Origin: Psammoneis japonica | Taxonomy: Eukaryota | Assembly (NCBI GenBank): GCA_008632985.1 | Contig: QPGO01000130.1 | Coordinates: 1-64,000, forward strand | Reading direction: 5' to 3' | DNA length: 64,000 nt | Shown here: in pieces, positions 34,336-60,362 of the stretch | How positions within the stretch are numbered: the first letter of the stretch is position 1 | Layout of the letters: each line of letters begins with the position of its first letter | Translations under genes and position numbers: made by a program | Notes under the pieces: generated by a model | The model's input: the letters and a program-made list of their open reading frames with translations, nothing else | Told to the model about the DNA's origin: nothing | Databases searched by the model: none

Positions 34336-35408
34336 ATCTTTTCCAATCCATTTATCTTGAGTAGTGCGCTGGCGAAGCGTTGATGTCGGTTTGCATTTTA
34401 CGGAACACCAAAGCGGAAGCTACAGTATGAAGAAATACAAATAATATTTTGCATAGCATCAATTTGTTACAACAGATGTGTTCAGCCCGACAACCGAACC
34501 TTAAACTCTTAATTCGCGTGGACTATATCAGAACGAGTTCACTACTTTGCGGTGTGCAAAGTAGTCCACGCGCTGCTTTCATCTGATCAACCGACACCTT
34601 CGTAGAAATGCGAACATGGAACCACCAACTTGCTTTTTCTGTGTGCTCTGGTCGAAATCAAAATTGTGCCAAATGACCAAAGCAATTGAACACAAAAACT
34701 TTTACATTACATTGAAAAATACACGATGGAATTTTGGGAGAAAAATAGGGTTTCTTATCGATTGTAACGAAGGTGCACCTAATTGTCCATTCGCGACCAA
34801 ACCACGACTCACGCAGGAATGGATAGAAAATGCAATCTGGTTGCGATTAGAATACCGGTAGTGACAAAAGACCAAAGCAATGGACCACAAACACTTTCGC
34901 AGAAAATGGCAAATTGAATGGTAGAACGTTTGGAGAGAAAATTGGCTTGAAATTGATGTTGTGCTAAACTTAATCGAATGGAACACAAAGTACGACTGAA
35001 AAGTAGGTGCAGTACACTTACGCACGACTGAAAACCGCACGTACTGCAGGACGACTCAACGGCACACAAAGGCGTGAAAGGACACACTCTTGAGATACCC
35101 TAGTACACTACATAGAGTCCGGCGCAGGTCACTATGACAGACTTATTGATGTTCTACTCAATAGAAGCAGAGGCCAAATGAGTAATCGAGTCATGTTCTT
35201 GCGAAAAACACCGCTCTACTTTTAGCTACTAGCTGCGGTGAAGAAGAAATCACTGGTTTTGACGCAGTGCGAAATTTAACGGTTTTGCCAAGAATCATCT
35301 GTACAGTACGTCTGGCGCTGAGTCGCAAGAAAACACGCTGTTATCAAGGTTGCCGAAGCTCAAAACATTGCTACAGTTAGTATACACCTGCTCTATACCA
35401 GGAACACC

Positions 35409-39419: not shown

Positions 39420-40529
39420 ATGCAGATGATGAGGATTTTGAGTCTTCACGATGTCAAGACCGTTGCAGCGAACAACGCTTCGACACTGATTACCTTATGG
39501 TCGTGTCTTTTTCTTCTTGAGGTGTTATACATGAGGGCATGCAGTAAGCTGGTGGATAAAGCTTTCGCCTGGGTACCGTCGATACCAACAAATAATGAAA
39601 TAGGTAACGACACGGATGGATTCAGGTTCGAGTCGAATGTATCGGACTCCAGTGATGCATACGAGCAATTCATGGAGGGACTCAGGTGGTTTCTCAGCAT
39701 GCTGGCTGTTTTGGGGTTGATTTTTACTGCGCATCCCTTGATACATGTGCTGTGCGTTAGCTCTTTTCATGTTGCTTTCTTTGTCAAGGCCAACCGTGAA
39801 GCGAACACCATCGGAGAGGTTATTAATCTTGTCCAATCCCGTGTCCTCTTGTATGCAAAAGCTGTCTGTGTGCAATGGATTGCAATCTATCTATTTCTTT
39901 GGTTCGGATTCTCAAACATTGTAACCAGTGGCTTTGTGGGACAGTCGTGGTACTGGACCCTCTCTCGCGGTCTTGGGCGGAGGGAAACTTTGGTAGTGGA
40001 AGCCTACACGTTGTTTTTAGTCGAGCCAAGCATCTCAGTGATGGACAAAGTGGCCTTGTCCTCAACACGAAGCTTGTCCAGATTGCATCGGAGAGGTTAT
40101 TAATCTTGTCCAATCCCGTGTCCTCTTGTATGCAAAAGCTGTCTGTGTGCAATGGATTGCAATCTATCTATTTCTTTGGTTCGGATTCTCAAACATTGTA
40201 ACCAGTGGCTTTGTGGGACAGTCGTGGTACTGGACCCTCTCTCGCGGTCTTGGGCGGAGGGAAACTTTGGTAGTGGAAGCCTACACGTTGTTTTTAGTCG
40301 AGCCAAGCATCTCAGTGATGGACAAAGTGGCCTTGTCCTCAACACGAAGCTTGTCCAGATTGCATCACACTTTGCTCTGTTTTATGTCCTCGAGGAGGTG
40401 GCGGACAAGGAAGTGCCGTTTCTTGGTACCACCCTTTTCTCGGGCGGCATCATCGAAAGCGCCACGTGGGGTACTCTTGAAGTTCTTGTAAACTTTCTTC
40501 TTTATCAAAAGCTCAAATCAAGCCAGTGA
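39420..40529 (+). pseudogene. Putative multi-pass membrane protein disrupted by an internal duplication; gene model uncertain
   Basis: Hydrophobic segments in ORF 39420-40103; mutated paralogous sequence at about 59.4-60.4 kb. Confidence 0.4.
39811..40364. repeat. 277-bp apparently exact tandem duplication
   Basis: 39811-40087 matches 40088-40364. Confidence 0.92.
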
Positions 40530-41099
40530 AGCAACTATTTCGGTCGGGACAAGTTCTTTTCTCTGTTCTTTTACTTTTGGTATCTCGCGGTGCTTCTGAA
40601 CAACGTGCAACTCTGTGCAACAAGTGGGAAATAGGTAGCCTGAAGTATTGCATTATAGTCAGAAGTAGGCGCATCAAGATTATTATACAATCGTAGCACC
40701 CCAAAACGAGCGGTCTGCACTTCGCGGCAGACTTGCGGGTCTATTCTCTCGGAGAGCGTCCTCGTCATGATTCTACCTGCAGTTCCAAGCCCCGCGACTC
40801 TTCCAGAAGAGGGCTCCCGAATCTCTCCAAGTGAACGTTCTTATTGTATGTCATTTCTGACTTCCGTGCCATCGAGGCGCAGATTATCAGACGCTGAAAC
40901 ACAACATTGAACATCGTCAAAGAAGGATCACTGAGTCGAACGCTACGGTTTGTACAATGTCAGACCAATCTAGCGTACACTTCTTTGCGTTGGCTCTACT
41001 ATTTAGATTGATACGTTCTTTGCCCCCCCCCCNCCCCCCCCCCCCGGCATTCGAATGAAGGGACAAGTACTTTCAGCCCTCAACCATGGATACACATCT

Positions 41100-43689: not shown

Positions 43690-45099
43690 TTTCATGAGGA
43701 TGTTTGTTCTCGCGCACGAGGCTCACTTTGTTGACTTCATTGCACCAGCAGTCAACTGGGAGCACTTCTCTCTTTTTGCAGGCTCCAGGCTTGTGGCGTG
43801 CACACAGCACGCAGAGAGCAAGACCCCAAAGGCCAAGCCACATGTTGACAACAAGGCCAGCGAATGGGTGGGCATGCTCCTTGCTGTCAAGTTGGACTTC
43901 ACTTTCTGCACAGAGCCAAGAGCGACAGAGGGCAACTGACCCATTGATTGTTTGGCACAGATCAGAGACCACCAATGAGACAGTGGTCTGTGCCCCCCCC
44001 CCCCCCCCCCTGTGTGAGTGGGGGTTCTTGTCACAAGTGCCACACAAGCTGCGGCAAGCTCACTCCTTTTGCAAGTGAGTTTTTGCTTGCAGTCTGTGCC
44101 ACCAACCCTTTGCAGCTTTCCAGCTGGAGCTCCAAATCCAGGTTGCTGTGGACTTGGCCAGCTCCAGCTTGAGGTCTGGCGCTGGTGGCTGCACCACAAC
44201 CAACCATGAAGCTTGTCCAAGAGACAGAGTCTGTTGCCATCAGAGGAAAGCAGAGTTGAGAGTGAAAGAGGGCAACAGACCAGCAGCTGGTTGTGAGGTT
44301 TTGCAAGTTTCTTAAAATCTGTCCTGCATTCATCAGAAACCCTGTGTGCTGTGATTGACAGATGCTTCTGGCTGCCAGCTGCCAGCATGTCAGTCAAGCA
44401 ACGGCAGCCACACAAGACATTTTGGAGAGCCACGTTGCTTCCAAAAAAGACACATGCACACACACACACACAAAAGTGATCCCTGCCAGCACCAACACAT
44501 CATTGCCTGTTCCATGTTGTAGAAGCAGACAGGTGGCAACACATTTCCATGCAAAATGGGCTTTGTGTTGTTGGCGTTGTCACCTGTCTCACAGCATTGA
44601 GAGAGGGCTGCAGCAGCTGTCACCTGACCCAAGTCATGAGCCTTGCACCCCACATGGCCTGCTTGGCTGAACGTGTTTTGGAAGTGTTGGCTGGATTTTC
44701 ACCCCAGCTAACAGATGGAAACACCTGAGACACAAAAACAGTGCATCATGTTGGTGCCTCTTTCTTGTGCTTGAAGCAAATGTCTTGCAGGGGTGGAGCA
44801 GGCACATGTTGTGTTCATGTCATCAAGCATCTGTGGGAGAAGCTGGCTTTTTGTGGATCACTTTCATTGCACAGGAAAATGGTGCAAGACATGTGCTTCA
44901 GTGACAACTCTGTGATCAACATGACCCCCTGCTTGTGACCCCAAACTGTTGTGTGTCTCTGGAGCCCCATGCTTGCCCCCCATTTTGGAAGAACCCTGAG
45001 CACAGTCCTGTTTTGTTGCTTTGGGTCCACTGCCCAATTTTTTGGAAATTGTGGGATCCCCACTGGCACCTGCTTGACAGTGAGAAGATCACCCCCTGT
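43690..45099. other. Heavily decayed CpG/TpA-depleted DNA (left flank of the copia insertion)
   Basis: TG/CA-saturated; no recognisable protein motifs. Confidence 0.65.
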
Positions 45100-45333
45100 A
45101 GTCGAGACACAGTCCTGCAGCTGAGTAGGATGGATGAGACCTCGGAGGTTGGCAGCAACATGAACAGCGACAGAGGCAAACAGACGCTTGTTGAAAGTCG
45201 TTGTCTGGAAATTATGACGAATGTCGTTGCTTCTGTTTGAATTGATTTTGTGATGAGCTAATTATTTCGAAGAGAAAATCTGAGTCTGGGTTGCAGTCGT
45301 GAGATGCGACCAGAATGACGTTGAGTCGTGACT
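45100..45333 (-). repeat. 3' LTR
   Basis: Direct repeat of 52109-52343; polypurine tract GAGAGGGAG (45334-45342) immediately precedes it on the minus strand. Confidence 0.95.
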
Positions 45334-45354
45334 CTCCCTCTCAACCGAGAGAGC

Positions 45355-48300
45355 TCACCAGCCCATGAGAGCCTTTCCAGCCGCACGGAACGCATCGGTC
45401 CGTGGTCCCTTCGTGAACTGATCGGCCAGTTGCTCTAGAGTGCTGACAGGTTGGATGTCGATCTCCAATTGTTCGACTTTAGTCCTAAACCAGTGGTGCG
45501 GGATGCCGATGTGTTTGGTTCGCGGAGACAACTTGGGCACACGTGCGAACTTGAGGCACGCGGAGTTATCTTCGCACACAACGGACGCAGGCAGGACATT
45601 CTGCTCTACAGGCGAGTCATCGGTGCATTGGGTTGCGAGCTCAAAAGCCTTGGAGTGAGTCGTGACAGGGTTTTGGCGGTCAGACTTTCCGAGTGCGTGG
45701 TGGTTGAGCTCCTTGAGAACTTCACGAATGGGGATGAGATCGCGCACAGCTTGAGAAAGTGCGACACACTCCGCTTCCACAGTCGACAATGCTGCAAGAG
45801 TCTGCAGCTTGGACACCCAGATGAGCGGGCAGCCGGCGCAGTAGATGAGGTGTCCAGTCCTGGACTTGACAGAAACTGGGTCTTGACCATCTTCCACACC
45901 AAATGACCCCGCGAAGTCAGAATCGACGTAACAATCAACTCGATGATCTTGCGCAGGCTTGAGAATGAGACCTTCAGCAGCAGTTGCTTTGAGGTGTCGG
46001 AGCATCCGCTTCACTGCAGCAGCGTGGGACGCTCGGGGCGCAAACGAGAATCTAGCTGCTTGATGTGTGGCACATGCAATGTCTGGCCGGCTGTTCGCTG
46101 CCAAGCACATCAACATTCCAACAACTGAGCGACAATCGCAGGGTTCATCAAAAGGCAGGCCATCCGTGTCGGCACCAATGGCCACAGGTAGAGCTGGAGT
46201 AGATGCTCCATTGCAATCCTCCATCTGTGCGGTGCGCAGGACCTTGTCAATTAGACCGGGTTGAGTGAGTAGAAATCGACCCTCGGAGAGCTTTTCGATC
46301 TTGATGCCGAGAAAGTCACCGACTTCTCCTTCGTCTCTAAGTTCAAACACGTGGCGATGTTCGTCGTCGGAGACTCCTAACTTGCGAATTTCGGCTTCTA
46401 GAGCTTCAGCTGAAGCTCCAGCAAAAACGGTGTCGTCGACGTGCACCACACACATCATGCCCTCTTTGAAATACAAACAGGGATCCATGGCTGAAGGCAC
46501 CCATCCGCGCTCGGTTAAACCAGCTCGTAACTTCTCGTAGAAGCCCTTGGGAGACTGTTTTAGGCCGTGTGGTCCTTTCAAAAGTTTGAGAACCATGTTG
46601 AGTCCCGACCTTGGCGCAAATCCCTTCGGCGGTGTCATGTGAACTTCCTCGGCGATGTCAGCTTGGCAAAAGGCTGTGGCACAGTCCACCTGTCGTGTGG
46701 TCCATCCCTCCTTTAATGCCGCAGTGAGCATGAGTCGGATGCTGGACCATTGCACAACCGGCGCGCAGGTTTCGAAGTGGTTGACTCCTTCTTTCTGCAA
46801 ATCACCGCGGACGCAGTGTCGGGCCTTGTGCTTGAGAGGGGTTCCATCTGGGAGTCTCTTGAGCTTCAGTGCCCATGTGCCTGGAAGCACATTCACACGC
46901 GGCTGACGCTCGACTGCTTTCCAGGCTCGACGATGTGTGAGTGCGTTGACTTCAATTTTCATCGCCTTGATCCATTCGTCGGCGTCCGGACCTTTCAGAG
47001 CATTGTGTGACGAAGGCATGTCAGGGTCCTTGGTTTTCTCACTGGCTGCGCAGGCTCGTGGATCACCGACATTGATGGCACCACTGTCCAAATCCGTCTC
47101 GAGAGTCGCCAGATACGCTGGTTGAGCCTCGTGTCTGATTGGCAGCGGTGTTTCCTCGACGGAGCTGAAGCAGACCTCATCCACAAACTTGGCAGAGTTG
47201 AACTGTCCCTTGGTTGACCGTGAAGACCGTCGCAGCCCTGGTGCTCCCTCTGGATTCGTCACAGGAGGTGTCTCGACTGGGGGAGGAGCTGTTGGTTCCG
47301 TCGGCGCTTCGGGTGGCGGAAGTCCGTTACCATCTTGAGGTTCAGGTGGCTGAATTGGCGTAGAGTCCGTAGAGTCTGTAGGAGTTTGAGTTGCAGGTGG
47401 GACTGGTGGCGTTGGCTGCTGAGTCGCAGGTGCGACTCGATCGGTGACGTCGTCGCGAGAGATGGGTGAATCCGGCACAGTGATCGATGGAGCAGGCTCA
47501 AAATGCCCGCGAATGCGTGTTGCTCTGGCCAGTTCTCGTTCTTTACGTTGACGCTCTGGAGGGGTGAGCCACTCATCGTGTAAATGAACTGCCTGATCCT
47601 TCTCCAGAGGGATGCACATCGATTGGTTGAGGCACAAGTGTTCCCAGTGATCAGGTGGATCCGTCTCCCTCTCGATTGATGGTGCGGCAGTGAAGAGATC
47701 GTCAAAGACCACATGATGCTGAGGTGCAACACTTCCAGTTTGAAGATTGAGGACCAAAGGAACCTCACTGGAATGGATGGCACTGAGTCCCACGAACAAA
47801 GCGCGACGAGTGCGAGTCTCCCAACGCGGGAGCTTCTTCCCGGAAGCGAGGGGTCGGGTCAAGTGCGCACGCTGGACATCCCCATGTGTGAATGTCGCGC
47901 AACCGATGTCTTGGCACTGTCGAACCGGTGAAAATGTCCGCTGGGCAATGTCCTTTGGAATTTGGGGTGACATTGTAGACACACGTGGCATGAGAAACTG
48001 CCATGGGCCATGGGGAGCTGTCAATTCCCCCCTTCCAGTGGATTGATGCATGAAGCAACATCGCTCTCGCCATGTTGGAGATGCTGCGGATGCCCCGCTC
48101 TGCGATGCCGTTCTGATGATGGGTGTTGGTTCCACAAAAACGGAGACGTTGTTCATGATCTCGCGTGTGTTGTACAAAAGCGTTGGCCTTGAAAGCGCCA
48201 CTGTCGGCAAGAAATTCTTGGACGATGACCCCGTGGTCCAAAGCATGTTTCTCAAACGCTTGCTTTGCGCGTGTCGTCTCAACAGCGGAGAAACCTAGTT

Positions 48301-51300
48301 GGTGCTCGACCTGGACATAGCCAGAGGCGTGGTCGACAAAGATGCAACCGCCCTTGAATTGCTTGGACGTGGCTTTGCCACAAGAGTTGAAGGTGCGGCC
48401 TAAAAGGCACGACTCAAAATGATCAACGCTGACAGCCTGACCCGGTCGAAGATGGTCAGCTCGAAGGGCCCCGTCGCGTTCAGGGACTGTCGACTTGTGA
48501 GTAGATCCAAGAGAGCGTCCATGACCTTTAGCATGTTCGCATGCCTCACATCTTGGGTGGTCACACTTCGCTGCGGACTTGAAACGGTTCGAAAGGAACG
48601 GAACTGCGCGGAGAAGTGCTTGGACGCGACCAAAGTTCAAATGGCCAAAACGGGCGTGCATTTCGAGAAGAAGCTTTTGGCCTGCCGTGAGGTTTTGATT
48701 CTCCTTGTTAAGGATCTGAAGGTTCACTTGAGGAGCGGCAGATGCGCCCTTGGTCATCGACGCAACAGGCAAGTGGCTTGATGGATGATGTGGCACGACC
48801 AACTTGCCCATCCCGTCAACATGTAAACGGAAAGTGGTTTCATCGCCCTCATGCTTCCCACGTGCCCCCTTCTCTTCGTTGAAGAGGCGTTGAGGCGATG
48901 GCAGGCGCTGACGGGCTCCAGGGACGCAGTGTGCCATGGTGTTCAGTTGGATGGTAGCCCCACTCGGCGTTGTGAACACCCACGCAACCGGACCGGCACC
49001 CTGGATGGCAAGACCGTTGGCAATCCCATTGATCTGCAAGGGTTTCTTGGGAACAGTCATGGGCCCCGTAAAATCATCTTTGTCGGGGGCAACAGCTAAC
49101 GTGGCACCAGTGTCCATGACGACCGTGAGAGCCTCGTCCGACAGACCGATGAGTGCCTGCGGATCGGATGCAAGGAGGTCGGCTTGTGATTGTCCGGTGA
49201 GCAGTTGGATGGTGGAGGCATTGTAGACGACTGGTCTGACACTTGCTTCCTCCAACAGTTCCACAGGATCTTGAAAATGGGCAGTGTCCACGACATGATG
49301 CAGCAGACAGAGCTCGTCAAACCGGAAGAAATCCGGGCTGAAGTCCTCAAGAGCGTCAAAGAAACACTTCTGGTCGTCGAGAGGTTCCAGTTCCTCACAG
49401 GCATCAAAGAAGGCTGATTCGTCTATCGCATCAGACCGTTCAGCTACTTCTAGGCTCTCCCAGTGGGCCTTGAGACGAGTGCTCAGTGCGTGTGACGGAT
49501 GGCGCGCGACAAACTCGGTGAGCACTTGCGTGCCTTTGATCCTGTGATGTTCGAACAGTGACCCCGAATCTAACACTATCCGGTCATCTGGCTCTTCCAC
49601 AATGTGGTAGACTTGAGAGCCAGCGGTCGAAAAACGACTTGGTGCGTTCGAGAATGGATGCTCGGGCTGTTGACCGGCGTAAACTGCTGACCACACCATC
49701 ACTGCAACGGACAGGACCATCCAGGAGGCTGGAAACCCGTGCAAAGTTGGGAGTTTGCGCTGGCGGCGTAGAGCTCGAGGGATGCATGGGATCGGAGCAA
49801 AGCAAAGATGCAGTGCCGTTTCCCAAAACATGGCGGCGAGCCAGAATGTGAATGGCTTGACTCGACCCAAGAGTGAGCGACGCGAAGTGGGCTCGTCTTC
49901 GACGTCCTCGTGACAATCATCCGCATCCAGGACCTCTGGATCGTAGAAATCGAAGCCACGATACGTAACACACGGAGGCAAGTCGCAGCATGCGTCTTCA
50001 AAGTGTACGTCGTGTTCAAGGATGAGATCTAACTTGGTGTCGTCTGACAGCACATCCGTCAAATGTGCGGGAGCGTCAAAGAACTCATCTGGATGCTTGA
50101 CAGAGCACAGCTTCGAGGCCGGAAACAACTCAATAGCCGGTGGTTCGTTTTCAAAGGTAGAGAAAGCGTCGGAGTGTTCGTAGAAGTCATCGGCATCTTC
50201 GGGAGTGACAGTCTCAACCACGATGGGAGACACGACTGGATCCACGACTGAGGTGAGTGCAGGTGGGCTCGTTTCGATGCAAACCACCTCAGTGCTAACG
50301 ACTGCATCGCTCTCCCTCTCGGCCGAAGAAGCCGGAGTAACAACAATTGCAGCAGCAACAGGGGCGGAACAGAAATCCGGGTCGGCAACGGGATCCGTAG
50401 CCGCGCACCACATTCCCGTGAAAGCCAACTCGTCGGGGTCGGATTCGTCTCCCTCTGGTGCCTTGGCAGTCTGAGCGGGCGGACCCATGGGCACGCCACC
50501 ATCCGGATCAGCAACGGAAGACAAATTCCCGGCTGGGGTCTCCTTGGGAGGTTGCCTGCGGTCGTCGGTATGTTCTGCGGTAGAGTGCTTCTGGCAGATT
50601 CCAGGTTTGTCGGCACCCTTCGCCTTGCACGTGGCACACCACTTCCATTCCTTGCCATTCTTATCCTTCTTCGTTTCTCCGTCAAATTTAGTGCGCCAGG
50701 CAGCGATGGGTCGCCTCTTCTTCTTGGAAGGGTCGTCTGCAGGCGGCGGATTGGGAGGAGGATCGTCGCGCGGCGGTTTGGCGTTGCACTTCGGACACGT
50801 CTTCTTGGTGCACCCCTCGAGACCGCAACCATGACAGTGCTTCGTCTTCCCAGGGTCATCCGTAGTCGAAAGATTACTCTCGGGTAGCTTGGCGACTAAT
50901 GCAGGCCATTCCCCGTCCTTCACGAGTTCGTTGTGTTGCTCTTGAATCCACGCAATGACACTGACCGGTCCGAGCGTTTTGCAATCGCTGTCGGACACAA
51001 TGTCAGCAGGATTCTTGAGGCGGCACTTGCGTTCCACAGCCTTGACGTCGTCGAGCTTGTTGTAGACTCGGCGATTGAAGCATTCAGAGGACGTAGAGGA
51101 GATCTTGTGGAGCAGCTTGGAGCTTGTGTTCGCCGGAAGCGCGCAGTCGGTCTGCACAATTTTCACGATGCGAAGAGCTTCGGTGGCAAAGTCCGTGCAA
51201 TCCTCGCCGGGACAGTCAACCAAACTGAGGTCTTCTGGCTGCTTCTCAGCCGTCTCAACATCCGTTAGAGCGCCAGCATTGCAAGTGTCGAGAGCCATCA

Positions 51301-51946
51301 TGAACAGAACAGATCCAGGGCAGTCTTGGCAGTCCGAAAGATGGTTGAACTTGGTCTCGATTTTCTCGCGAAAGGTGTCAGTGATTCTTGAGTGAACGAG
51401 AAGTTGAGAGAGCCCGATGTCGTCGAGCTCGATCTCGTCGTACTTGGTGTCATCGGTGGCTGCTTTCCCAACCGTGTACTCGTTCACGAGATCGGTCACA
51501 GCAAACTCGTGAAGATGGTCGAAGACACACTGAACCTTGTCGTCGCTGTCCTTGACATGGTAGAACGTCTGCTGACCGTGGGCTTCTACTAGATCTCGAA
51601 TGGTCTTGACGAAATGGTCCTTGTCAAGCTCGTTGATGGGACCGTCCGAAATCTCAAGTCGACCGTTGAACTTGGAAGTCATTGCGGAAGCTTGTTGATC
51701 GCGGAGAGATCGTTCTATCGAGTCGAGAGCCTTGGGATGACGGCGCTGAGAGGCGAATCGGCAGGTTCCATCGTTGGATTGTTCGCAGTTGTTGTTGAGT
51801 TTGGAACCACCAATGTAAACCCCGTGGGTTGGGTGAATTCCACCACGTGACGGCTTGGTTGGAGCCGGAGGAGCGGTCGCCGCGGCGTTGGCGGCCATTG
51901 CATCGGCAAACGCCTTCGCCAGAACATCTGGATCGATGGCAGCCAT
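45355..51946 (-). pseudogene. Copia gag-pol polyprotein; one frameshift near 47.85 kb; RT active site mutated
   Basis: WKWCATC..H..EH (gag), MDTGAT (protease), HARFGH..CEAC, VSVDH and HQNGIAER (integrase), HVDD (for YVDD), YVDSDFAG, EDNSAC and RTKHI (RNase H). Confidence 0.95.
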
Positions 51947-52094
51947 GACAGAGAGTGCAGCATGAGAGGTTCTTGTTAGAGTGAAGACGAGAGAAGCGAG
52001 AGAGACTCAGCCATTTCCCGGGTTTGCTTCAAAATCAAAAACCGAAAGCGTCCGTGACGATGACTTGGTCAGGAGCTCTCGTCAACGCGCAAAT

Positions 52095-52109
52095 TGGTCT
52101 CTGTGACCA
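52095..52109 (-). promoter_or_regulatory. Putative primer-binding site
   Basis: TGGTCACAGAGACC abuts the 5' LTR on the minus strand, with the first T shared with the LTR end. Confidence 0.55.
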
Positions 52110-52343
52110 GTCGAGATGCAGTCCTGCAGCTGAGCAGGATGGATGAGACCTCGGAGGTTGGCAGCAATGTGAATGGCGACAGAGGTAAACAGACGCTTGT
52201 TGAAAGTCGTTGTCTAGAAATTATGACGAATGTCGTTGCTTCTGTTTGAATCGATTTTGTGATGAGCTGATCATTTCGAAGAGAAAATCTGAGTCTGGGT
52301 TGCAGTCGTGAGATGCGACCAGAATGAGCGTTGAGTCGTGACT
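52109..52343 (-). repeat. 5' LTR
   Basis: Direct repeat of 45100-45333. Confidence 0.95.
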
Positions 52344-53163
52344 CCTGTCCCACAGTTCGCTTTGTCAAACTGGCCATCAGCATTCTGCTTTCTGTGCTCT
52401 GCAATTTTTGTTTTTGCGGCAGTGCCAGTTTCTCCATTTTGCACACTTTGCCACCTTGTTGATTGCCCTGGCTGGCAACATTGCTGGCAGATGAGTGGAT
52501 CAGCAGGGAAACATCTCAAAGGATTCTGCTGCATGCTGCAGGCCAAAGTGAGAACCCCCGGGTGGGACTCCACTGCACTGTGCATCCAGGTGAGGGAGTG
52601 TGGTGGACAACAGGATCCAACCCCCCTCTGACAAAGCACTGTGCTGGCATTTCCCAGCTGTGGCACATGGCCGTTGTTGGGCTCTGCAGTGTGTGGGCAC
52701 TTGCCCAGCAAATGGGAGGCATGCAGGCAGGTGTGCAGAACACATGATGTTGTGGTTTGCACCTGCCAGGTGCAACATGGCCACACAACATTGCTGTGGT
52801 GGTGTGATGGCACAGCAGGAAGTCTTGCTGATGGCATGGTTTGCAGTTGCCAGGTGACACTGAACACACAACTGCACATTGGAGCTGGCTTGCGATTGCT
52901 TCTTGCTTGACATTGCAAACAACTGCATGCTGTGAGAGAGTGTGCTGCTGCCCTCCGCTTGCGTGAGAAGCAAAGGTGGCTGCACTTCAAAGCACTTGTT
53001 ATGACAGCCCTTTTGGCTGAGCAAAAGCCCTCCAAACTGTCCAAAAAATGGTGCTGCACAGGGGTGCTTTGCTTTGAGGTGTGATGCTCCTAAAGTGGCG
53101 CTCCAAGCATCCTCCTCAGCCCCCCCCCCCCCATGTCCTCTCCATTGTGCTCACTCCTTTTTT

Positions 53164-53292
53164 CAATTGTGCATTTTTTCATCATGTGAAAATGCTCTCT
53201 TGACAGCACAAAATCCTCTCTGTTTGTGCTCGCTTCTTTTTTCCATTGTGCACTTTTTGTCATGTGAAAATGCTCTCTTGACAGCACAAAAT
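53164..53292. repeat. Two-copy tandem repeat (about 79-bp period)
   Basis: ATTGTGCA..TTTT..CATGTGAAAATGCTCTCTTGACAGCACAAAAT occurs twice. Confidence 0.8.
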
Positions 53293-53964
53293 GTGTGTGT
53301 GTGTTCTTCTGCCCACCGGTGCACTCCACAGATTTGCTCCCCACATCTTTTGCAGCCTCATCATTGTTTCCCCACAAAAGATCTCCTTTCTTGCAGCACC
53401 CACACTTGCAGAAAAGAGCAGCAGCACTCCTCTGGTGGTCTGCAGAAAAATGCAGTTTTTTGGCATGCACTTGTGCAGCATTGTTGACAAAAAGTTGCAG
53501 TTGCCAAAACAAGAGCATGGGAGCCGCCAAGATTGCCTGGGAGATGTCACTGTGTGTTTTTGCTTCCTCTTTTTTTCATGGAAGCTGCGGTCAGACTCAA
53601 GGGTCTCAAGGGTCCAGAGGGGGAGCAATTTTGCCAGAAATTAGGGAATTTCTCAGAAAAAGAAAGCAGGAGCCCAGTTTTTGGTGAGTGCTGCTGGTGT
53701 GCTGCCACACGGACATTGTGCACGCTGTGCACTGCACGCTGAATGGTGCTCCTGTTGCACTGGTGGGAGCTCACAACCCATGTGCTCCAGACAAAATGAC
53801 CTGGTGGACATCATCAGCCCCATCTTTTTTGTCTTTTGCTTTGGTGCTGTTCCTGCCAGCACTGCTTGGAAGCAGTGCTCCATGCTTCATTTTGAAACAG
53901 TTTGTCATTGTCAGCACAAGTGTGGTTAAATCAACAGTTGCTGTGAAAGAAAGTGGCCTGGTCT

Positions 53965-54365
53965 CACATTGGCATGGCAGCTCTGGGACTTTGTTTCAAC
54001 TTGCTGTGCTCTGGAGGTTGCTTTGTCTGCTTTTTCACACACACTTCAAACCGTGCTGGTCCAGTCCCATGTCAAAATTTTTGCCAACCCCAACCCTGAC
54101 AACCCTGGCCCAAATCTTGTGTTGGCATGGTGGCTCTGGGCTTTTGTTTCAACTTGCTGTGCTCTGGAGGTTGATTTGTCTGCTTTTTCACAGACTTCAA
54201 ACCATGGTCCATGTCAAATTTTTGCCAACCCCAACCCTGACGACCCCAACCCAAATCTCATGTTGGCATGGTGGCTCTGGGCTTTCGTTTCAACTTGCTG
54301 TGCTCTGGAGGTTGATTTGTCTGCTTTTTTGCACACTTTGAACCATGGTCAATGTCAAATTTTTG
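53965..54365. repeat. Three-copy tandem repeat (about 140-150 bp)
   Basis: TTGGCATGG..GCTCTGGG...TTTCAACTTGCTGTGCTCTGGAGGTTG at about 53969, 54122 and 54263. Confidence 0.88.
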
Positions 54366-55994
54366 CTGAAATCAATGCCAACTGGCCAAACAAAAAAGTC
54401 ATTTTTTTGCAGCTGTGTGCTTGAGACATTTGTTTCTCTTGGGTGGGTCAGTTGGTGACAATTGAGTTTGTTTGAAAGGGACAAAGAAGCAGCCACAATG
54501 AAGGATGCAAGAAGGCAGCTTTGTGAGCACTTCCACTGAGCACAGATTGCTGTGGGTCTTTTGCATGCTGTGCAGCAGTGCAGCAAAAATGAGAGCTTGG
54601 CTCATGCAAAAGTAACTTTGGAGCTGCCACCAACCCACCTGTGCCCCCATTCAAGGTTTTTGGCCTTTTCTTTCCATCTTCAATGGCGACATCAAGCCAG
54701 AAAAGCAGCTTTGTGCATGCATCAAGCCAGAAACAAGGAACTCTCCCCACAACCTTCAACCTGTCCATTGTTCGAAAAAAAATCAATTTGCGAGGCAAGC
54801 TGTCAGATTTGCGAGGTGAGCTGCAAGATCTGGAGCTTGAGATCTTCTTTCTGGACCAGAATCCCAATGCTTCCGTGAGTCAGAAAGAAACTGTCCAAAG
54901 CAAGATTGAAGGCAAAAAACATGACATCAAAATCAAGCAAAAAGAATTGAAGGTGCTGGAGGCGCACGTTGGTGACTCCACACTCGGATCGGCTGGGGGC
55001 CACAACAGCCATGGTGACTTCGGATCAACTGGGGGTTGCACAAGTCCCAGTGTCTCATAAAGTGGAGTTGTGTTGGTGGCTTGAGCAGCGTGGTTTTTTG
55101 GATTGGAGGAATGGAACATCTGCAACTTTTGGAAGAATTTCCAGGTCAAGCATGCCATCATGTGACTGCATCAGCATTGGGTCGAGGGTGGGGTGGGGGG
55201 AGTTGGCAAGTGAGCTCGCTCATCATGAAGGGTAAAGGGGACTCTAAGGATGGCTCAATGTGTGCAGAAAAGCAGCAATGCCTGCTGCCACACAAGCAAA
55301 AATGTGGCAGCAGCCACACAGTCTCTACAGAGCTTGTGCATTTTGTCTTTAGTGCTTCATGTTGGACATGAACAAAACTTGGATCAGCAGACATCACAGT
55401 TTCTATTAACACCGCCTCTTTGTCATCCCGTGCGTGTCCTTTCAACACAAGAGAGATGCATGGATTCCAGGAAGCTGCCACAGTGTAGCGAGATGTTTGA
55501 CGAGGTTGTGGGTTCTGCTGGCACCACAGAGATGACTGGTCTAAAAGAAGACTGTGGGTGGCCATCAAGTGACAGACTTGGAAAAGGCTTTGAGTCTGCT
55601 TTCCACCATGCATGTTGGCTGATGATGCACAACGCCATGAGAACCCTGCACTGTGCAGTGCAGCACCCATGGCAAACATTAAAACACAAGAAATCCCAAC
55701 TTCCAATTGTCCCAGTTTATCTGACCACAGAGCAAAGATGAGCTTCACAACTGGGAAATGACATGTGTCGTTCTTGTTGCAATCTGGGTCACAGTGTGAC
55801 ACTTTGTCTGTGGCTTGATGCAGCTGCTTCAAGGAGTCTAAAATGAAAGATCCAAGTTGCAATTTGTGGGATTGAGGAAGTGCCATCATGCAGAGGCAAA
55901 TGATGTCCTGATGTGCATTCACATGTGGGGAGTGAAAAATCAACCATCAACAGTGCATCCCAAATGAGCCGTGTGCTTCTATGCTCTTGAGAAA

Positions 55995-56380
55995 TTCAAC
56001 AAGTGAGGGCATCTTGTTCCAGCACCAACAGGCATTTCAAGAGTGCTTCACAATTTTGTTCAAAGTTCTTGCCACCCAGAACCTGAGTTGTGCACCATTG
56101 GCTCAAAATCCTTTGCATCTTGCATGAAAGGTCCATGTGAAAAGGAAGGAATGCCCAAATTCAAAAGTGGCTGTCTGCCATTGAGTTGGCAAGACAACGT
56201 TGCACATGCTCGTTCATGCACTTTGAACTTTTCATTCACATGAAAGCTGTGAGCAGCAAAGACAACAAGGATTTTGACTCTCCACCTGACGAGCTGTGCA
56301 CCATTGGCTCAAAATTCCTAGAATCTTGTGTAAAAAGTCCTTGCGACAAGGAAGGAACATCAGAGCGTGCATTGCAGTGA
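55995..56380 (+). pseudogene. Hypermutated paralogue of about 39170-39440
   Basis: AACCTGAGTTGTGCACCATTGGCTCAAAATCCTTTGCATCTTGCATGAAAGG versus AACCTGAGCTGTGTACCATCGATACAAAATCCCTTGCGTCTTGCGTGAAAGG. Confidence 0.75.
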
Positions 56381-56974
56381 TCCAGACCACCTTTCTCACA
56401 GCAACTTTTTTAATCTGTTGCAGTGCAAAATTCTGATGTTTCAAAGCTTGACAGTTGTGCAGCTGGCAACCACATGTCAACTGTGACAGATGAACATTTT
56501 TATGCTGTGAGATCAGACCCCCCCCTCCCCATGAGGAAAACATGTTTGACTGTGAAAGAGGGACACATTTTCCCTGTGAGAGTGCCCACCCTCTGTCCCT
56601 GCAAAACCTGCAAATTAAAATCATTTGCGCTGCACCACGAACATTCTGTTTTGTTGTTTGCATTTAAATTGAATGATGCTGACGGAGACAACACTCTAGA
56701 GTTTGCAGCAGCAGCTGCAACAGCTCGCTTTCTTGAAGTGCCACTGCTGGCAGCCACCTTGTTCATTGCCAAAAAAAGTGCAGAATGCGTTGTGAGAGTG
56801 CAGTGTGGATGAACTGACACTGTCAACAGGAATGGCCACATGGGCTTGCCGGTGCATCCGGTGCCACTGATTCTGGAGCAGGCAAGTTTGCAGCACCGCA
56901 GAGAGACTTGAGAAGCCTTTTAAAATGAGCCTGACAACTCAGGCAACCTCCAATGGGTTGCCTCCCCACTCTCT

Positions 56975-57262
56975 GCCTCTGCAGTCTTTCTGGATCTGGA
57001 CATGGAAATTGGAGAAGACGGATGCAACGCAAGTGAACATGTCAAAAACCAATGAAGCTCTTTTGTGCATGCCCTTTTTGAAGAGTGTCACATGTGGTGA
57101 ACAACTTTTCATGTGTGCAATTCTGAGAGCTGCAGGAACAAGCACTGCCTGCAGTCTTTCTGCATCTGGGTGCAGAAATTGGAGAAGGCGGATTTGTTGT
57201 TGGCAAATGTGTCAAAAACCAATGAACCTCTTTTGCACATGCCTTGTTTAAAGAAGTGTCAT
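56975..57262. repeat. Two-copy tandem repeat (about 170-bp period)
   Basis: CTGCAGTCTTTCTG.ATCTGG...GAAATTGGAGAAG...TGTCAAAAACCAATGAA occurs twice. Confidence 0.8.
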
Positions 57263-59389
57263 TTGTGGAAACTTGTGATGATTCTGGGTGCAAAACTCTG
57301 GCATGCAAGATCACACCAACACTGCAAAAAAGCAAGTTTGTGATGTGCGTGCACACAAAAACATGCCAGCAGCTCAGCATTCTGGATGTGGTGGTGGATT
57401 CGTGGCAGACACTTGCAATCATGAAACTCAAGCTGTGCCTGAATCAAAACCCATCTTGACTGACCAGAAGGACAGCAGGTTTCACCATGCGTTGAGCTGC
57501 TGTCATCAGCCAATGGTTGTTGATTTGCAGATTTGCGACCACACGCAGGATCCACGGGCACCCACGTGAATCATGACAGCAGTCTGCACACTCTCGTTTT
57601 TCAAATTTTGGGGAGAGGGTGCACTGTCACAAAGTGTGCAGAAAATTGTGCATGTAAAAAACACACTGAAAATGCCACAGTCCAATGGGCTGCACAAATC
57701 TGGGAAACATGAAGAAAAACAAAGGTTGGTCACGTGCGTGTGTGAAGCACTGCATGTGCAGTGGACTGCACATGTGCAAAGACACACGCACGTGAGTGAG
57801 GAGGACAAAGTCAAAACCAAGTTCAAATTGATTGCAATCAAAAGGAAACCAAACCATGCATCACAAAAGACAGATTTCAGTCCCAATTGCAAATGCAGCA
57901 TTGCACGCATTTGATTGAAGCTTGTGCAAGAAAAGTTGATGAGACATCAGATGAAATGCACAAAACAGCTGCATTTTGTTGAGCACTTTTGTTGGCATTT
58001 TTTTTTAAAAATTCTGCTTGTCAACTCTCATGAACTCTTTGTTTGCCACAGCAAAACGAGTTTTTTTTTTGTGTGGCACAACTCAGAGCACCCAACACAA
58101 AGACAACCAACATGGCACATTGCCGTTTGGAGTCATTGCAGTTGACAGTGCCCCGAAGCCATGCGGGGCGATTGCTGTCACAGCAAGGTGCATTGTGATG
58201 GCTTGGCTTGGTGTGCTGTTGTGTTGCCATCTTGTTTTCACTTTGTGACTCACCAGCTGTTGCATCAGCATTTCTTGCATCATGACAGGTGTGACCGACC
58301 ATCATCAACAGAGTGGGTGTTGTCGTTTTTGTCATCCACAGGACAGAATCTGGTGGAATGTCAAACAAATGGGTGAGAGCATGCACCACAATGCTGTTGT
58401 TCTGTTGCATCAGATTGTCCTTTTTTGCATTTCATGTTCCCTCAGCTGACCCTTGCTTTTTGTGCCACTGTTTTCTGCTTTACAGTGCAAAATCACGGTT
58501 GTTCATGTCATGGGCATGATGGACACAGATGATGGCAAGCATGTCTCCATGCTTGCCTTCAGTTCCCTCAACACTGCTGTGGAGAATGCCAATTTGGAGT
58601 CCTGTGTGGCTCCCACAGCCACTGCTTGACCTCCAGCACTGCCGTCAGAAATTGCAACTGCTTCACCCATCATTTCTTGCACTGATGGACAAAAGAAAAA
58701 ACAAGGTGAGCCTCCACTGATCTTGGTTGCATCCATTTGCAGGAGACCAGCCCTTTGCCATTTGTCCACCAAATGCCTTTTTCTCTCTTGTTCATTTGCA
58801 CAAGCTCACGCGCACCACACAAAAAACACACCCTGCACTGCGATCCTCTGAGAGGCATCCTGACAAGGAAGTCGCAGCAAAGGAGACATCCAGGCACTGT
58901 GGATGAGGCTCTCTTGGCCAACAAGAACAAAAAAGCTGAGCAGAAGACTGCCAATGTAATTGTTTGAGGGTGTTGCTGTCAACACATCTAAAATGCAGGT
59001 TGAGCACAACGTGGTGCAACAACCACCAGTTTAAAATTGGAAATGTGCGTGTCTGTCGTCTGTTGCACATGCACTGCTCCATGCTGCAGCTTGATTGAAT
59101 GTGCACCTTGCAGCTGTAGAAAAATGCTCTTTCGGCAAACACATGGTCTCACACATGGAAAGACCTGTTGACCAAAGAAAGGGAGGAAGAGGCCTGTGCG
59201 GGAAGAAGAACTTGTGCACAACAAGAGAGCGATGAAAACATTCGTTCACATGTGTCAGTGTGCAGTGCCAAGATGTGTGTGCATCTGCACACCGTGCAAA
59301 AAAATCTGTGCCAATCCATCCTGGCAAACAAAGAGAAATTTACAAAGGAAAGTGGCAGAAACCACTGTGTTGCAGCCTCTGATGAATGA

Positions 59390-60362
59390 ACAAATTCAAA
59401 AGTGGCTGTCAACCATTGAGCAGGTGAGACAACATGTTGCATGCTCATTCGTGCACTTTGAACTTTCCATTCATGCAAAAACTGTGAGCAGTGCAGATGA
59501 CAAAGATTTTGAGTTTCCACAAAGTGAAGACCTTTGCAGCAAGCAATGCTTCAATGCTCAATGCTGACAATGCATTGTGAGCAGTCGTGTCTTTTTCTTC
59601 TGGAGGTGCTTTAGATGAGGGCTTGCAAAAAGGTGGTGAATTGGATGCAGTCAACACCAACAAATGAGCCAGGTTTTGATGCTGATGGAATCATGTTCAA
59701 GTTGAATGCGTCCTGGTCTGTTGATGAGCACATTGTCAAGCTCTTTCTTGGCATGATGGCTGCTTTGGGGTTGGTTGTCATTGTGCATCCCTTGATGCAT
59801 GTTCTGTGCATCAGCTCTCTTCACATGTTGCTTGTTTTCTTTGTCAAGGCCAAACGTGAAGCAAACAGCATCAGAGAGGCTGCAAAGCTTTTGTGCAGCC
59901 CTGTGTCCTGCTGCACGCACTCCATTTTCTGTCCTCAAGTTGGAGGCCAAGAAAGTGGAAGTGCTGTTTCTTTAAACCACCATTTTCTCTGACAACATTG
60001 TTGAAACTGCCACACTGGGTGCACTTGAAGTGCTTGTGAACTTTCTTCTCTGTCAGAAGCTCAAATCAAGCCAGTGAAGCATGCGCAGTTGTTGGGGTTG
60101 TGTTTTTCTCTTTTTTTTTTTTTTAAATTCTGCATCTCTGTGAACAGGCAACTTTGAGATCTCCCGGTGTTTATGAACAACTGGCAAGCTGTGCAGCAAC
60201 CGGGAGTCCAAAAGAGGAACTTCAAGATCATTGCACATCGCAGCACCCCAAAACGAGCTGTCCACAGCTCTTTTCGGAAGGATTGTGGGTCTGCTCTCAC
60301 GAGAACGTCCTTGTCATGATTCTACCTGCAGTTCCAAATCCCGCAACTCTCCCAGAAGAGAG
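59390..60362 (+). pseudogene. Hypermutated paralogue of about 39320-40811
   Basis: Shared anchors TTTCTTTGTCAAGGCCAA, GCTCAAATCAAGCCAGTGAAGCA and GTCATGATTCTACCTGCAGTTCCAA. Confidence 0.8.

Follow-up and report, generated by a model that had tools for sequence, protein, structure and literature searches.

Probable strand-symmetric loss of TpA dinucleotides from transposons and silent blocks of a diatom-type genome

Why should the two long terminal repeats (LTRs) of a single retrotransposon insertion differ from one another exclusively at pyrimidine-purine (YpR) dinucleotides? The question is raised by an element on the minus strand of the 64-kb window, by which we mean the whole stretch of DNA that was analysed. 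The direct repeat formed by its ends was confirmed (Table 1) and shows approximately 94.5% identity over 235–236 aligned columns. Apart from one single-nucleotide indel there are 12 mismatched columns, making up nine dinucleotide sites, and all 12 mismatches are transitions within YpR dinucleotides: TA faces CA or TG at five sites, CA faces TG at three, and CG faces TG at one. An earlier note on this DNA had quoted these same differences, and realignment recovered every motif listed there. It had further remarked that about a dozen CpGs and a single TA survive in both LTRs; the dinucleotides common to both do number 12 CpG and one TpA. Positions within YpR dinucleotides differ in 12 of 110 cases and those elsewhere in 0 of 122 (Fisher p = 9e-5).

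Other duplications in the window provide a baseline for these nine events, all of the YpR type. Among the longer and older duplicate pairs, five in number (families A and B), YpR events make up 0.23–0.32, which gives P = 2e-6 to 4e-5 for the LTR result; if the share of 0.45 seen in the 7036/7284 tandem repeat is used instead, P is still 8e-4. Two younger duplicate pairs, with 6 of 9 and 3 of 4 events at YpR steps, are themselves YpR-rich and hence cannot serve as a neutral background.

The element is a Ty1/copia (CoDi-like) LTR retrotransposon in a diatom-type genome. Open frame 2 possesses an RVT_2 domain [PF07727, E = 2e-34] at residues 453–698, while the match of open frame 1 to gag_pre-integrs is weak [E = 3e-4, 20.9 bits, under the Pfam cut-off of 28.4]. 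In full-length relatives PF13976 and PF22936 lie ahead of PF07727, and PF25597 is also carried. The best relatives of the reverse transcriptase frame are about 60% identical and include one from the diatom Fragilaria crotonensis; the protein gave no match to a phage collection. The two frames are separated by a frame break within their overlap (47765–48282), and at 47850 one letter present in the window is lacking from 545.7 of the 711.5 units of family depth. The LTR termini read AGTC...GACT and not the canonical TG...CA, and the LTR boundary is marked by six contigs each at 52108 and 52109 (12 in total) which part from the window upstream of there. Because a perfect 5-bp target duplication lies on both sides, both LTRs can be attributed to a single insertion. 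A second copy of the family was not found within the 64-kb window.

Table 1. Features of the copia element, its surroundings and the Helitron-like element in the window
Feature	Position	Strand	Basis or remark
Helitron-like element, PIF1 helicase and Helitron_like_N frames	1313..6468	-	Pfam matches
TpA- and CpG-depleted block left of insertion	44001..45094	.	1-kb window 44001: TA 0.05, CG 0.09, CA+TG 1.91
Target-site duplication, left copy CCTGT	45095..45099	.	matches 5 bases after right LTR
3' LTR, 234 nt, TpA 4, CpG 12	45100..45333	-	direct repeat of 52109-52343; dinucleotide counts
LTR sites CA (left) vs TG (right)	45108-9, 45159-60, 45165-6		
LTR sites TA (left) vs CA (right)	45126, 45263		
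LTR site CA (left) vs TA (right)	45177		
LTR site TG (left) vs TA (right)	45207		
LTR site TG (left) vs CG (right)	45243		
LTR site TA (left) vs TG (right)	45260		
Putative polypurine tract adjoining 3' LTR, sense ...GAGAGGGAG	45334..45345	-	position and composition only
Open frame 2, pol reverse transcriptase / RNase H part, 975 aa	45355..48282	-	Pfam RVT_2
Open frame 1, gag / protease / integrase part, 1393 aa	47765..51946	-	weak gag_pre-integrs match
Frame break between the two open frames, one extra base in window copy	47848..47850	-	family depth
Putative primer-binding-site region adjoining 5' LTR, sense GGTCACAGAGACC...	52090..52108	-	position only
5' LTR, 235 nt, TpA 3, CpG 13, extra G at 52328	52109..52343	-	direct repeat
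Target-site duplication, right copy CCTGT	52344..52348	.	
TpA- and CpG-depleted block right of insertion	52349..60000	.	TA 0.01-0.19, CG 0.14-0.42, CA+TG 1.66-2.00

The LTR pair alone gives no direction, since a stationary reversible process makes a loss as probable as a gain at each differing site. The direction of change was taken from outgroups and not from the nine LTR sites themselves. A Tyr column was considered conserved if this residue occurs in at least 80% of the 20 relatives. At 12 such columns the copia element possesses Tyr once, His six times and Cys five times; all 11 altered codons are CAC, TGC or TGT, each one transition removed from TAY, and the YVDD motif of the reverse transcriptase now reads HVDD. 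Since the products split six to five, both strands are affected. Conserved Arg is retained at 17 of 18 columns (12 of them as CGN) and the other conserved columns at 222 of 249. When 34 long relatives were pooled in a second alignment, His or Cys occupied 8 of 482 cells (Fisher p = 9e-17 in comparison with the element). In the Helitron-like element none of six conserved Tyr residues is kept (Cys 4, His 1, Arg 1), five of the codons now being CAY or TGY and the sixth CGC, and Tyr accounts for 0.6% of its residues, the median of relatives being 3.4%. A host PP2C/cNMP gene, which served as negative control, keeps Tyr at 9 of 11 conserved positions and has no His or Cys replacements. This control is confounded by purifying selection and is by itself no proof of escape from mutation.

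The earlier note had read the CA-versus-TG sites as reciprocal hits on one ancestral dinucleotide, and this reading holds with TA as the ancestor. At 46105–46107 the codon specifies Tyr in 30 of 34 relatives, is TGC in the window copy and CAC in the family majority. An ancestral TA can account for each of the seven such doubles in the coding part, and for this one the outgroup confirms it. A 2-bp inversion or tandem double mutation had also been considered for CA/TG sites and was dropped once the outgroup had shown the ancestral TA.

Composition extends the pattern beyond the element. Its TpA observed/expected ratio is 0.23 (ApT 0.87, CpG 0.95), compared with a median of 0.64 in 79 related loci from metagenomes. 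In 4-kb bins the TpA ratio is 0.07–0.34 in transposons and silent blocks against 0.52–0.56 in the host-gene block; in 1-kb windows the respective ranges are 0.01–0.34 and 0.27–0.71. Across 1-kb windows TA correlates negatively with CA+TG (r = -0.80), and TpA depletion parallels CpG erosion (r = 0.70). One old repeat, present in a normal block and again in a depleted one, gives a direction: where the normal copy has TA, the depleted copies have TA 2, TG 16, CA 12 and CG 2 times. TA has become TG or CA at 28 sites, while the reverse direction is represented at 0 of 133. The repeat copy of the normal block, which is non-coding, retains TA. The process is not genome-wide, since in an ordinary three-copy family (A), once polarised, gains of TA are not fewer than losses (12 versus 7). 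The mutational spectrum, its direction within the coding sequences of two transposon families and its confinement to certain blocks of the window are all direct observations.

The block to the right of the insertion contains numerous overlapping open frames on both strands. We attribute these to TpA-free DNA being devoid of TAA and TAG stops; no real Pfam domains were found in 17 open frames at 52–61 kb or in three at 8–12 kb. Selection against TpA (or UpA in RNA), and not mutation, might strip TA from transposons and silent DNA. TpA is indeed under-represented in most genomes, and in the host genes here it is also low (0.5–0.6 at codon positions 3–1). Depletion is, however, equal or stronger in DNA without recognised genes, conserved Tyr residues including the catalytic YVDD have been destroyed in two unrelated transposons, and the separation of two LTRs of one insertion leaves little for selection to act on. 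We regard selection as very improbable.

The copia family is large and variable, with 3040 contigs of run X1 aligned to the element and 679 variable places, 565 of them varying by transitions. Our family-wide comparison covers 40 of these places, all internal to the element and none in the LTRs, limited to those at which at least about 83% of family depth agrees. With the family majority as polarity, 33 events were counted: 13 are CpG decay, three plain TA loss and seven CA/TG doubles, and there are two apparent TA gains plus one transversion creating TA. Polarising by the family consensus, as the earlier note had proposed, consequently puts CpG decay ahead of plain TA loss at these internal places. 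We judge this CpG-dominated picture to be biased, since recurrently edited sites would fall under the agreement threshold. The two apparent gains involve the synonymous Leu codons CTA and TTA and could equally be losses in the majority. At the doubles 86–97% of family depth carries one shared product. Such a single product is not predicted by independent editing of each copy. One contig of run X2 and none of run X3 aligned to the element, from which we draw no conclusion. Among the 79 metagenome loci 17 end-repeat pairs were found, one of which (L045, 86% identical and probably no LTR pair) was left out; among such pairs of related elements CpG decay predominates (13 of 25 events), a weak control in that many of the remaining 16 pairs are contig-end overlaps which may represent one collapsed LTR.

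Given a family of this size, one might suspect an assembly or consensus artefact in a multi-copy repeat. Only 0.65 of the sampled 31-letter words of 44500–53000 occur in run X1, and at 11 of the 40 listed places the letter of the window occurs in no aligned contig. Rare variants are dropped in contigs, however, and at all seven doubles some family depth differs from the majority letters, which we take to be the state of the window. Furthermore, unique flanks adjoin both LTRs together with the matching target duplication, and the signature is not confined to the copia element, being found again in the Helitron, old repeats and the composition of tens of kilobases. An artefact is in our opinion scarcely credible. 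Another possibility is that the LTR differences were imported by gene conversion from diverged family members, or that an edited LTR served as template. In keeping with this, the family is variable, all mismatches fall within the first 164 of 235 LTR positions, and recombination between diatom CoDi elements is documented in the available part of PMC2806351. Neither a tract nor a donor is seen, though, and the intact target duplication speaks against ectopic exchange between two elements. An imported spectrum would in any case be equally TpA-centred, altering the logic of the LTR pair as an internal control and not the conclusion on the process. We consider conversion quite unlikely.

How fast is the change? 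A stationary reversible model applied to the LTR pair gives an exit rate of 1.22 for TA versus 0.021 for CG (equal rates, p = 1.8e-5). According to a loss-only model 0.71 of TpA was lost per LTR from approximately 12 ancestral TpA, and the TpA observed/expected ratio at insertion was 0.71, near the value of relatives. The contention of the earlier note that TpA loss far outpaces CpG decay accordingly stands for the young copia element and not for the old blocks, where little remains of either dinucleotide (TA at 2 of 32 sites, CG at 8 of 51; p = 0.30, no significant difference). Its inference of TpA loss agrees with the outgroup Tyr codons, which also show both strands to be affected, and with the Helitron, the old repeat and the TpA content of relatives, the LTR sites themselves being unpolarised.

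The same reversible model, with uniform site rates, also fits the 55 YpR sites of the LTR pair on the assumption of fast two-way toggling, in which CA and TG are likewise hypermutable to TA (C-to-T at CpA, possibly methylation-tied or RIP-like). On this view gains would account for about half of the TA-versus-CA/TG sites, and each CA/TG site would represent two steps by way of a short-lived TA. The fitted rates are 1.22 from TA to CA/TG and 0.23 in return, with 2.4 doubles expected and three seen; the two apparent TA gains in the family agree with this, and diatoms possess DNMT4 enzymes, relatives of the RIP enzyme RID of fungi (available part of PMC9998398). Toggling requires, however, that CpA-to-TpA change be about ten times CpG decay (0.23 versus 0.021), with no changes at the 122 non-YpR positions. 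The repeat common to both blocks shows no TA gain at its 133 CA/TG sites, the element is far off a TpA equilibrium (0.23, against about 0.05 in the flanks and 0.64 in relatives), and all seven coding doubles fit ancestral TA, with outgroup confirmation in one case. Toggling therefore appears unlikely to us.

Alternatively, the differences might stem from C-to-T deamination at CpA and CpG, either RIP-like or driven by methylation, with TA derived and CG ancestral to the CA/TG sites. Each of the 12 LTR mismatches can formally be written as C-to-T or G-to-A, and CpG decay in the copia family is real (the 13 events above). Deamination predicts an excess of TpA, and in the old blocks the ratio is 0.01–0.2; in the repeats no RIP-type excess was found (TpA 0.23 and ApT 0.87 in the element, with TA ancestral). 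By outgroup TA is ancestral at 11 of 12 Tyr codons, and at the doubles the family majority has TG or CA and never CG. Three double CpG hits would also be unlikely with 12 CpG intact, approximately 0.4 being expected on a rough estimate (about 17 ancestral CpG, per-LTR decay about 0.22). Deamination is thus extremely improbable as the source of these differences.

We consider it probable that a strand-symmetric process converting TpA to TpG or CpA, faster than ordinary mutation, operates in transposons and silent blocks. The copia element would have inserted into a silent block already poor in TpA and CpG, and the changes in its LTRs would have arisen in place after insertion. There, T:A pairs in TpA steps would be converted at the DNA level to C:G on either strand, a hit on one strand yielding TpG and a hit on the other CpA. 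Transposons and silent blocks would be affected, and neighbouring host genes and ordinary non-coding DNA far less; targeting presumably follows chromatin state or methylation. The rate in the young element would be at least an order of magnitude above CpG decay, and the excess over ordinary substitution greater still. On this scheme the five sites with TA in one LTR would be single losses, the three CA-versus-TG sites two independent losses each from one ancestral TA, and the CG/TG site ordinary methyl-CpG decay or its reverse. Candidate chemistries are adenine deamination with a preference for 5'-T, or a thymine modification which mispairs with G; we favour neither.

Fungal RIP changes CpA to TpA and enriches TpA. 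The process considered here resembles it in being defence-like, in attacking a single dinucleotide by transitions on either strand and in inactivating transposon genes; polarity and base pair are opposite, however, TpA being destroyed and CpA/TpG enriched. Animal retroelements are hypermutated by APOBEC3 (G-to-A) and ADAR (A-to-G, with a preference for 5' U), which act on cDNA or RNA before integration and leave the LTRs identical. The transitions that these enzymes leave in integrated retroelement copies are likewise context-specific. In the present case, by contrast, the two LTRs of the insertion differ from each other, and the mark is also found in a DNA transposon and in silent DNA outside transposons, which points to chromosomal DNA as the substrate of editing. 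RNA editing before reverse transcription was rejected as an explanation, for it predicts LTRs without differences and cannot act on a Helitron. CpG methylation of diatom transposons is described in the available parts of PMC2806351 and PMC9998398, and methyl-CpG decay would fit the CG-to-TG/CA changes in the copia family and the CpG erosion of the old blocks. It cannot, however, yield the TA-related LTR differences, the loss of Tyr or the depletion of TpA, and in the element CpG stands at 0.95 against 0.23 for TpA.

The closest precedent comes from Bigelowiella natans, in which giant-virus and virophage DNA integrated into the genome undergoes TpA hypermutation, as described in a 2026 preprint (bioRxiv 10.64898/2026.01.13.699255). 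According to the available part of that text, 230 of 231 mutations in two integrated viral regions of mutation-accumulation lines were A-to-G or T-to-C, these all on TpA. Features of the B. natans type further include new mutations at a rate about 1000-fold above background and a host-encoded candidate nucleic-acid adenine deaminase (ADAT2-like). In both systems TpA gives TpG or CpA on either strand and foreign DNA is hit while ordinary host genes are spared. The TpA-poor genes of B. natans are, in the same part of the preprint, enriched in reverse-transcriptase and transposase Pfam families. Both cluster thresholds of that study are passed by 23 of our 64 1-kb windows, with runs at 3001–8000, 18001–21000, 23001–26000 and 52001–60000. 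The differences, again as far as the available text goes, are several. New mutations were seen directly in B. natans, whereas all those considered here are deduced from sequence comparisons. B. natans is a chlorarachniophyte and belongs to a different supergroup from the diatom-type (stramenopile) host. Its targets are integrated viruses, ours two kinds of transposon (an LTR retrotransposon and a Helitron) together with entire silent blocks; its viral region has a TpA ratio of 0.45, and depletion here is far deeper (0.01–0.3). The words 'diatom', 'stramenopile' and 'CpG' do not occur in the available preprint text, while in our window TpA depletion accompanies CpG erosion.

Several consequences would follow. 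The earlier note had warned that LTR dating would be biased, and the data support this: the pair is 5.1% divergent, yet no position outside YpR dinucleotides differs, and an age calculated from all sites at an ordinary rate would be a gross overestimate. Were editing episodic as in B. natans, LTR divergence would not be clock-like at all. TpA-directed hypermutation, so far reported only from the one chlorarachniophyte preprint, would on the sequence comparisons given here also shape a diatom-type genome, with retrotransposons and DNA transposons as targets in addition to integrated viruses, and the question of the enzyme would become testable in a group with genetic tools. Conversion of TpA would kill transposons. 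Gene finders and transposon classifiers would be misled by the numerous long overlapping frames of TpA-free DNA, edited transposon proteins would have systematic Tyr-to-His/Cys replacements, and extreme dinucleotide bias of the kind seen here would be a mark of silencing history and not of foreign origin as such.

We further propose, tentatively and at slightly less than even chances, that diatoms, and perhaps SAR algae generally, possess a dedicated, chromatin-aimed genome-defence editor, a 'reverse RIP' through which transposons and silent DNA lose TpA from both strands. The replacement of Tyr codons by His or Cys codons would inactivate transposons, and the removal of TAA and TAG stops would leave long meaningless open frames. 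Combined in the course of time with CpG methylation decay in the same blocks, such an editor would produce DNA nearly free of both palindromic YpR dinucleotides. The signature recurs in unrelated environmental sequences, namely a Helitron-type protein whose 866 residues include no Tyr and a copia-type contig in which the TpA observed/expected ratio is 0.04; this suggests that the process is widespread in marine protists.

A complete LTR retrotransposon on the minus strand spans the interval 45100–52343. Its reverse transcriptase (RT)/RNase H part shares some 60% identity with many marine-metagenome proteins, the sole named source being the diatom Fragilaria crotonensis, and the named relatives of a neighbouring host gene (PP2C and cyclic-nucleotide-binding domain) are nearly all diatom. 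From these homologies we identify the element as a CoDi-like Ty1/copia of a diatom-type genome. Its two frames overlap, and at about 47850, in the overlap, one window base is absent from 545.7 of 711.5 of the family depth in X1 (a public sequencing run whose contigs were used for family comparison); the window copy is therefore broken by a private 1-nt insertion. The LTR termini (45100–45103 and 52340–52343) read AGTC...GACT, not the usual TG...CA, and the presumed primer-binding region (52090–52108, sense strand GGTCACAGAGACC) lies directly after the last T of the LTR.

Features of the retrotransposon and of the surrounding sequence (TpA, CpG and CA+TG as observed/expected)
Feature	Position	Strand	Remarks
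Left LTR	45100–45333	minus	234 nt; direct repeat, ~94.5% identical to right LTR
Right LTR	52109–52343	minus	235 nt; direct repeat of left LTR
Target duplication CCTGT	45095–45099 and 52344–52348		perfect 5-bp match on both sides
Frame 1	47765–51946	minus	1393 aa; gag_pre-integrs match weak
Frame 2	45355–48282	minus	975 aa; matches copia-type reverse transcriptase (RVT_2) strongly, E = 2e-34
Helitron-like element	1313–6468	minus	PIF1 helicase frame 1313–2902, Helitron_like_N frame 3952–6468
Host-gene block	28–44 kb		TpA 0.27–0.71, CpG ~1 (1-kb windows)
Young transposons (copia, Helitron)	45100–52343; 1313–6468	minus	TpA 0.1–0.34, CpG 0.6–1.1
Depleted blocks	18001–21000, 23001–26000, 44001–45099, 52349–60000		TpA 0.01–0.23, CpG 0.05–0.42, CA+TG 1.66–2.0

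Alignment of the two LTRs reproduces exactly the differences described in the earlier note: besides one indel, 12 columns are mismatched, and they represent nine dinucleotide sites, of which three are CA versus TG, one is TG versus CG (left versus right) and five are TA versus CA or TG, either way. All 12 mismatches are transitions within pyrimidine–purine (YpR) dinucleotides, so that 12 of 110 YpR positions differ as against 0 of 122 other positions (p = 9e-5); the LTRs have 12 CpG sites and a single TpA site in common. With every mismatch of this kind, the 5.1% divergence of the LTRs is no measure of the element's age, and the warning that LTR-based dating would be biased here holds. In two older and longer sets of duplicates in the window, tandem family A and duplicated host gene B, YpR-type events make up 23–32% and transversions 40–52%; against these backgrounds the nine of nine YpR events of the LTR pair have a probability of 2e-6 to 4e-5. 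Two young window duplicates are likewise YpR-rich (54075/54216, 6/9; 26115/26662, 3/4).

A four-state model fitted to the 55 LTR YpR sites gave a TA exit rate about 58 times that of CG (equal-rates test, p = 1.8e-5), and 2.4 doubles (sites with CA in one copy and TG in the other) were expected where 3 were seen. The polarity of single LTR sites is not given by the pair, because a stationary reversible process makes gain and loss equally likely at a TA-versus-CA site. If the LTR counts (one TA kept, five single losses, three visible double losses) are fitted with a model that allows losses only, 0.71 of TpA would have been lost per LTR (support range about 0.47–0.87) from some 12 ancestral TpA. 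These correspond to an observed/expected value of 0.71 at insertion, which is near the median of 0.64 for 79 related metagenome loci. End-repeat pairs of related metagenome elements (16 pairs after L045, one such locus, was left out; many possibly contig-end overlaps) show 13 CpG-related differences, 1 TA-related difference, 0 CA/TG doubles and 11 others, versus 1, 5, 3 and 0 in the window pair (p = 4e-6).

The direction of change could be read from protein outgroups. When the RT/RNase H part was aligned with 20 relatives, 12 columns were conserved for Tyr (Tyr in at least 80% of relatives), and in these the window element reads Tyr at one, His at six and Cys at five. At the 11 columns without Tyr the codon is CAC, TGC or TGT, in each case a single transition away from TAY, and among them is that of the catalytic YVDD motif, which reads HVDD; the 20 relatives, scored identically, show two changes to His or Cys in total. 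A second alignment with 34 long relatives gave, in frame 2 (11 columns), Tyr 1, His 5 and Cys 5 and, in frame 1 (three columns), His 1 and Phe 2, versus His or Cys in 8 of 482 cells of the relatives (Fisher p = 9e-17 for the excess). Other conserved columns were kept at 222 of 249, and conserved Arg at 17 of 18 (12 as CGN codons), with no change to Cys, His, Gln or Trp at those 18. Tyr makes up 0.6–0.9% of the two frames (120 relatives: median 3.2%, minimum 2.1%); His and Cys both lie above the highest of the 120 relatives in frame 1, and Cys alone does so in frame 2. The Tyr and Arg counts therefore show that TpA was lost both ways, six times to CA and five times to TG, in the element's lineage and that CpG hardly decayed. 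Loss on both strands, as the earlier note interpreted the LTR pair, is supported by independent polarity tests, which concern places other than the LTR sites themselves.

The Helitron-like element has kept 0 of 6 Tyr conserved in 23 relatives, the codons in their place being TGC or TGT (four), CAC (one) and CGC (one). Tyr makes up 0.6% of its residues versus a median of 3.4% for the relatives (0.2–0.6% across its frames), and its TpA is 0.1–0.26 of expectation. Since this element, without an RNA intermediate, carries the same Tyr loss, editing of RNA before reverse transcription is excluded as the cause. The host PP2C gene has kept 9 of 11 conserved Tyr (the remaining two are Ile and Phe) and equals 50 relatives in Tyr content, a control which is confounded by purifying selection.

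An old repeat occurs both in a block of normal composition (39170–40811) and in a depleted block (56000–60360). Opposite a TA of the normal copy, the depleted copies show TA 2, TG 16, CA 12 and CG 2 times, and at the 133 sites where the normal copy has CA or TG, TA was never seen in them. CG was kept at 8 sites and became CA/TG at 43, with 4 changes in the reverse direction. TA survival in the old blocks (2/32) is not significantly lower than CG survival (8/51, p = 0.30); it is thus the young element that bears out a loss of TpA far ahead of CpG decay. Two tandem 277-nt units, 100% identical, lie inside the repeat (39809–40362). In family A (three copies) polarised TA gains amount to 12 of 209 CA/TG sites and losses to 7 of 36 TA sites; transversions account for 79 of the 168 changes. 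This ordinary pattern, with TA gains not fewer than losses, shows that the process is confined to certain blocks and not genome-wide. A DWNN/RING (RBBP6-like) host gene, duplicated in tandem (31787–33985 and 35322–37472, plus strand; identity 93.5% across 2.6 kb), shows an ordinary spectrum (48 transversions in 119 events) with normal TpA and CpG.

At the scale of 1 kb the window is a compositional mosaic, the copia element being located within one depleted block. Such blocks are nearly without both palindromic YpR dinucleotides; TAA and TAG stops are scarce and overlapping open frames of 130–270 aa are many on both strands, in none of which a Pfam domain was found. Over the 64 1-kb windows TpA is correlated with CA+TG (r = -0.80) and with CpG (r = +0.70). 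At codon positions 3–1 TpA is about 0.5–0.6 in host genes and 0.15–0.24 in transposons. A tandem family at 15717–28071 (three copies of ~5.5-kb units, 86–91% identical) is itself a mosaic, with a normal long-frame part and depleted spacers (18–21 kb, 23–26 kb) that are only 67–76% identical; its third copy has an internal 548-bp duplication (26115–26662/26662–27209, 99.3% identical). Positions 612–653 are a run of 42 N and 41033 is a single N (assembly gaps or masked bases).

The best explanation, which we consider fairly likely, is that a hypermutation directed at TpA turns T:A into C:G in chromosomal DNA, and does so only in transposons and silent blocks; beside it, CpG decay would be a slower companion process. 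Judging by the available part of a 2026 preprint (10.64898/2026.01.13.699255), the closest match is TpA hypermutation in Bigelowiella natans. Its mutation-accumulation lines show a mutation rate in two integrated viral regions that is ~1000-fold higher than elsewhere in the genome; of the 231 mutations in these regions, 230 are A-to-G or T-to-C changes, each of them at a TpA. B. natans has 124 TpA-poor, CpA+TpG-rich clusters enriched in viral and transposon domains, and by the thresholds for these clusters 23 of our 64 1-kb windows would be classed as hypermutated. Its authors propose an adenine deaminase and name transposons as possible targets; diatoms, stramenopiles and CpG are unmentioned in that part of the text. 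A literature search for the same phenomenon in diatoms or LTR elements, judged in part by title and abstract opening, returned nothing else relevant. Fungal RIP, which changes CpA to TpA, has the opposite polarity and does not fit, TpA being both depleted and ancestral here. Diatom transposons are known to carry CpG methylation (PMC2806351, PMC9998398), which explains no more than the CpG part of the pattern.

A second copy of the family is absent from the 64-kb window. X1 contains 0.65 of sampled words from 44500–53000, and 3040 of its contigs matched the element at a likeness of at least 80%; summed depth, which is not copy number, is 3000–7600 within the element versus 67 in the right flank. 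Of 679 variable places (565 transitions, 114 transversions), 40, all internal and with ~83–100% of depth disagreeing with the window, were polarised by the family majority, that is, the commonest letters in X1. They make up 33 events: 13 CG to TG/CA, 3 TA to TG/CA, 2 CA to TA, 1 TG to CG, 7 CA/TG doubles, 4 other transitions and 3 transversions. At face value this tally, with CpG decay (13) exceeding plain TA loss (3), counts against TpA loss outpacing CpG decay. However, agreement of 83% is out of reach for a place where many copies have been edited, so that such places would hide among the other 639. Polarising by the family, the check proposed in the earlier note, therefore speaks to 40 internal places and not to the LTR sites.

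At codon 46105–46107 the relatives have Tyr (30/34), the window copy TGC and the family majority CAC. The double there therefore arose by two single losses, independent of each other, at one TA of the ancestor, which bears out the idea of reciprocal hits on one ancestral dinucleotide, the ancestor being TA rather than CG. Each of the other six internal doubles could likewise go back to TA, in an ATA-type codon, in TAT or as a T|A that straddles two codons. Two apparent TA gains are Leu codons, CTA and TTA in the window copy where the majority has CTG and TTG, and it may be the majority that lost TA here. At doubles a single product is common to 86–97% of family depth; this may mean that the progenitor of most copies had itself been edited, or that each TpA has a site-dependent bias towards one product.

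Among environmental Helitron-type proteins related to the Helitron frame of the window, Tyr is 0/866 residues in P0131, 1.0% in P0126 and 1.1% in P0148, other relatives having 2.3–5.3%; His and Cys are not raised in P0148 and are raised in P0131 and P0126. The metagenome contig L039 (1789 bases, a copia-type RT locus), with TpA 0.04, CpG 0.20 and CA/TG ~1.7 of expectation, is the only one of the 79 related loci more depleted than the window element, so that environmental DNA from elsewhere carries this signature too.
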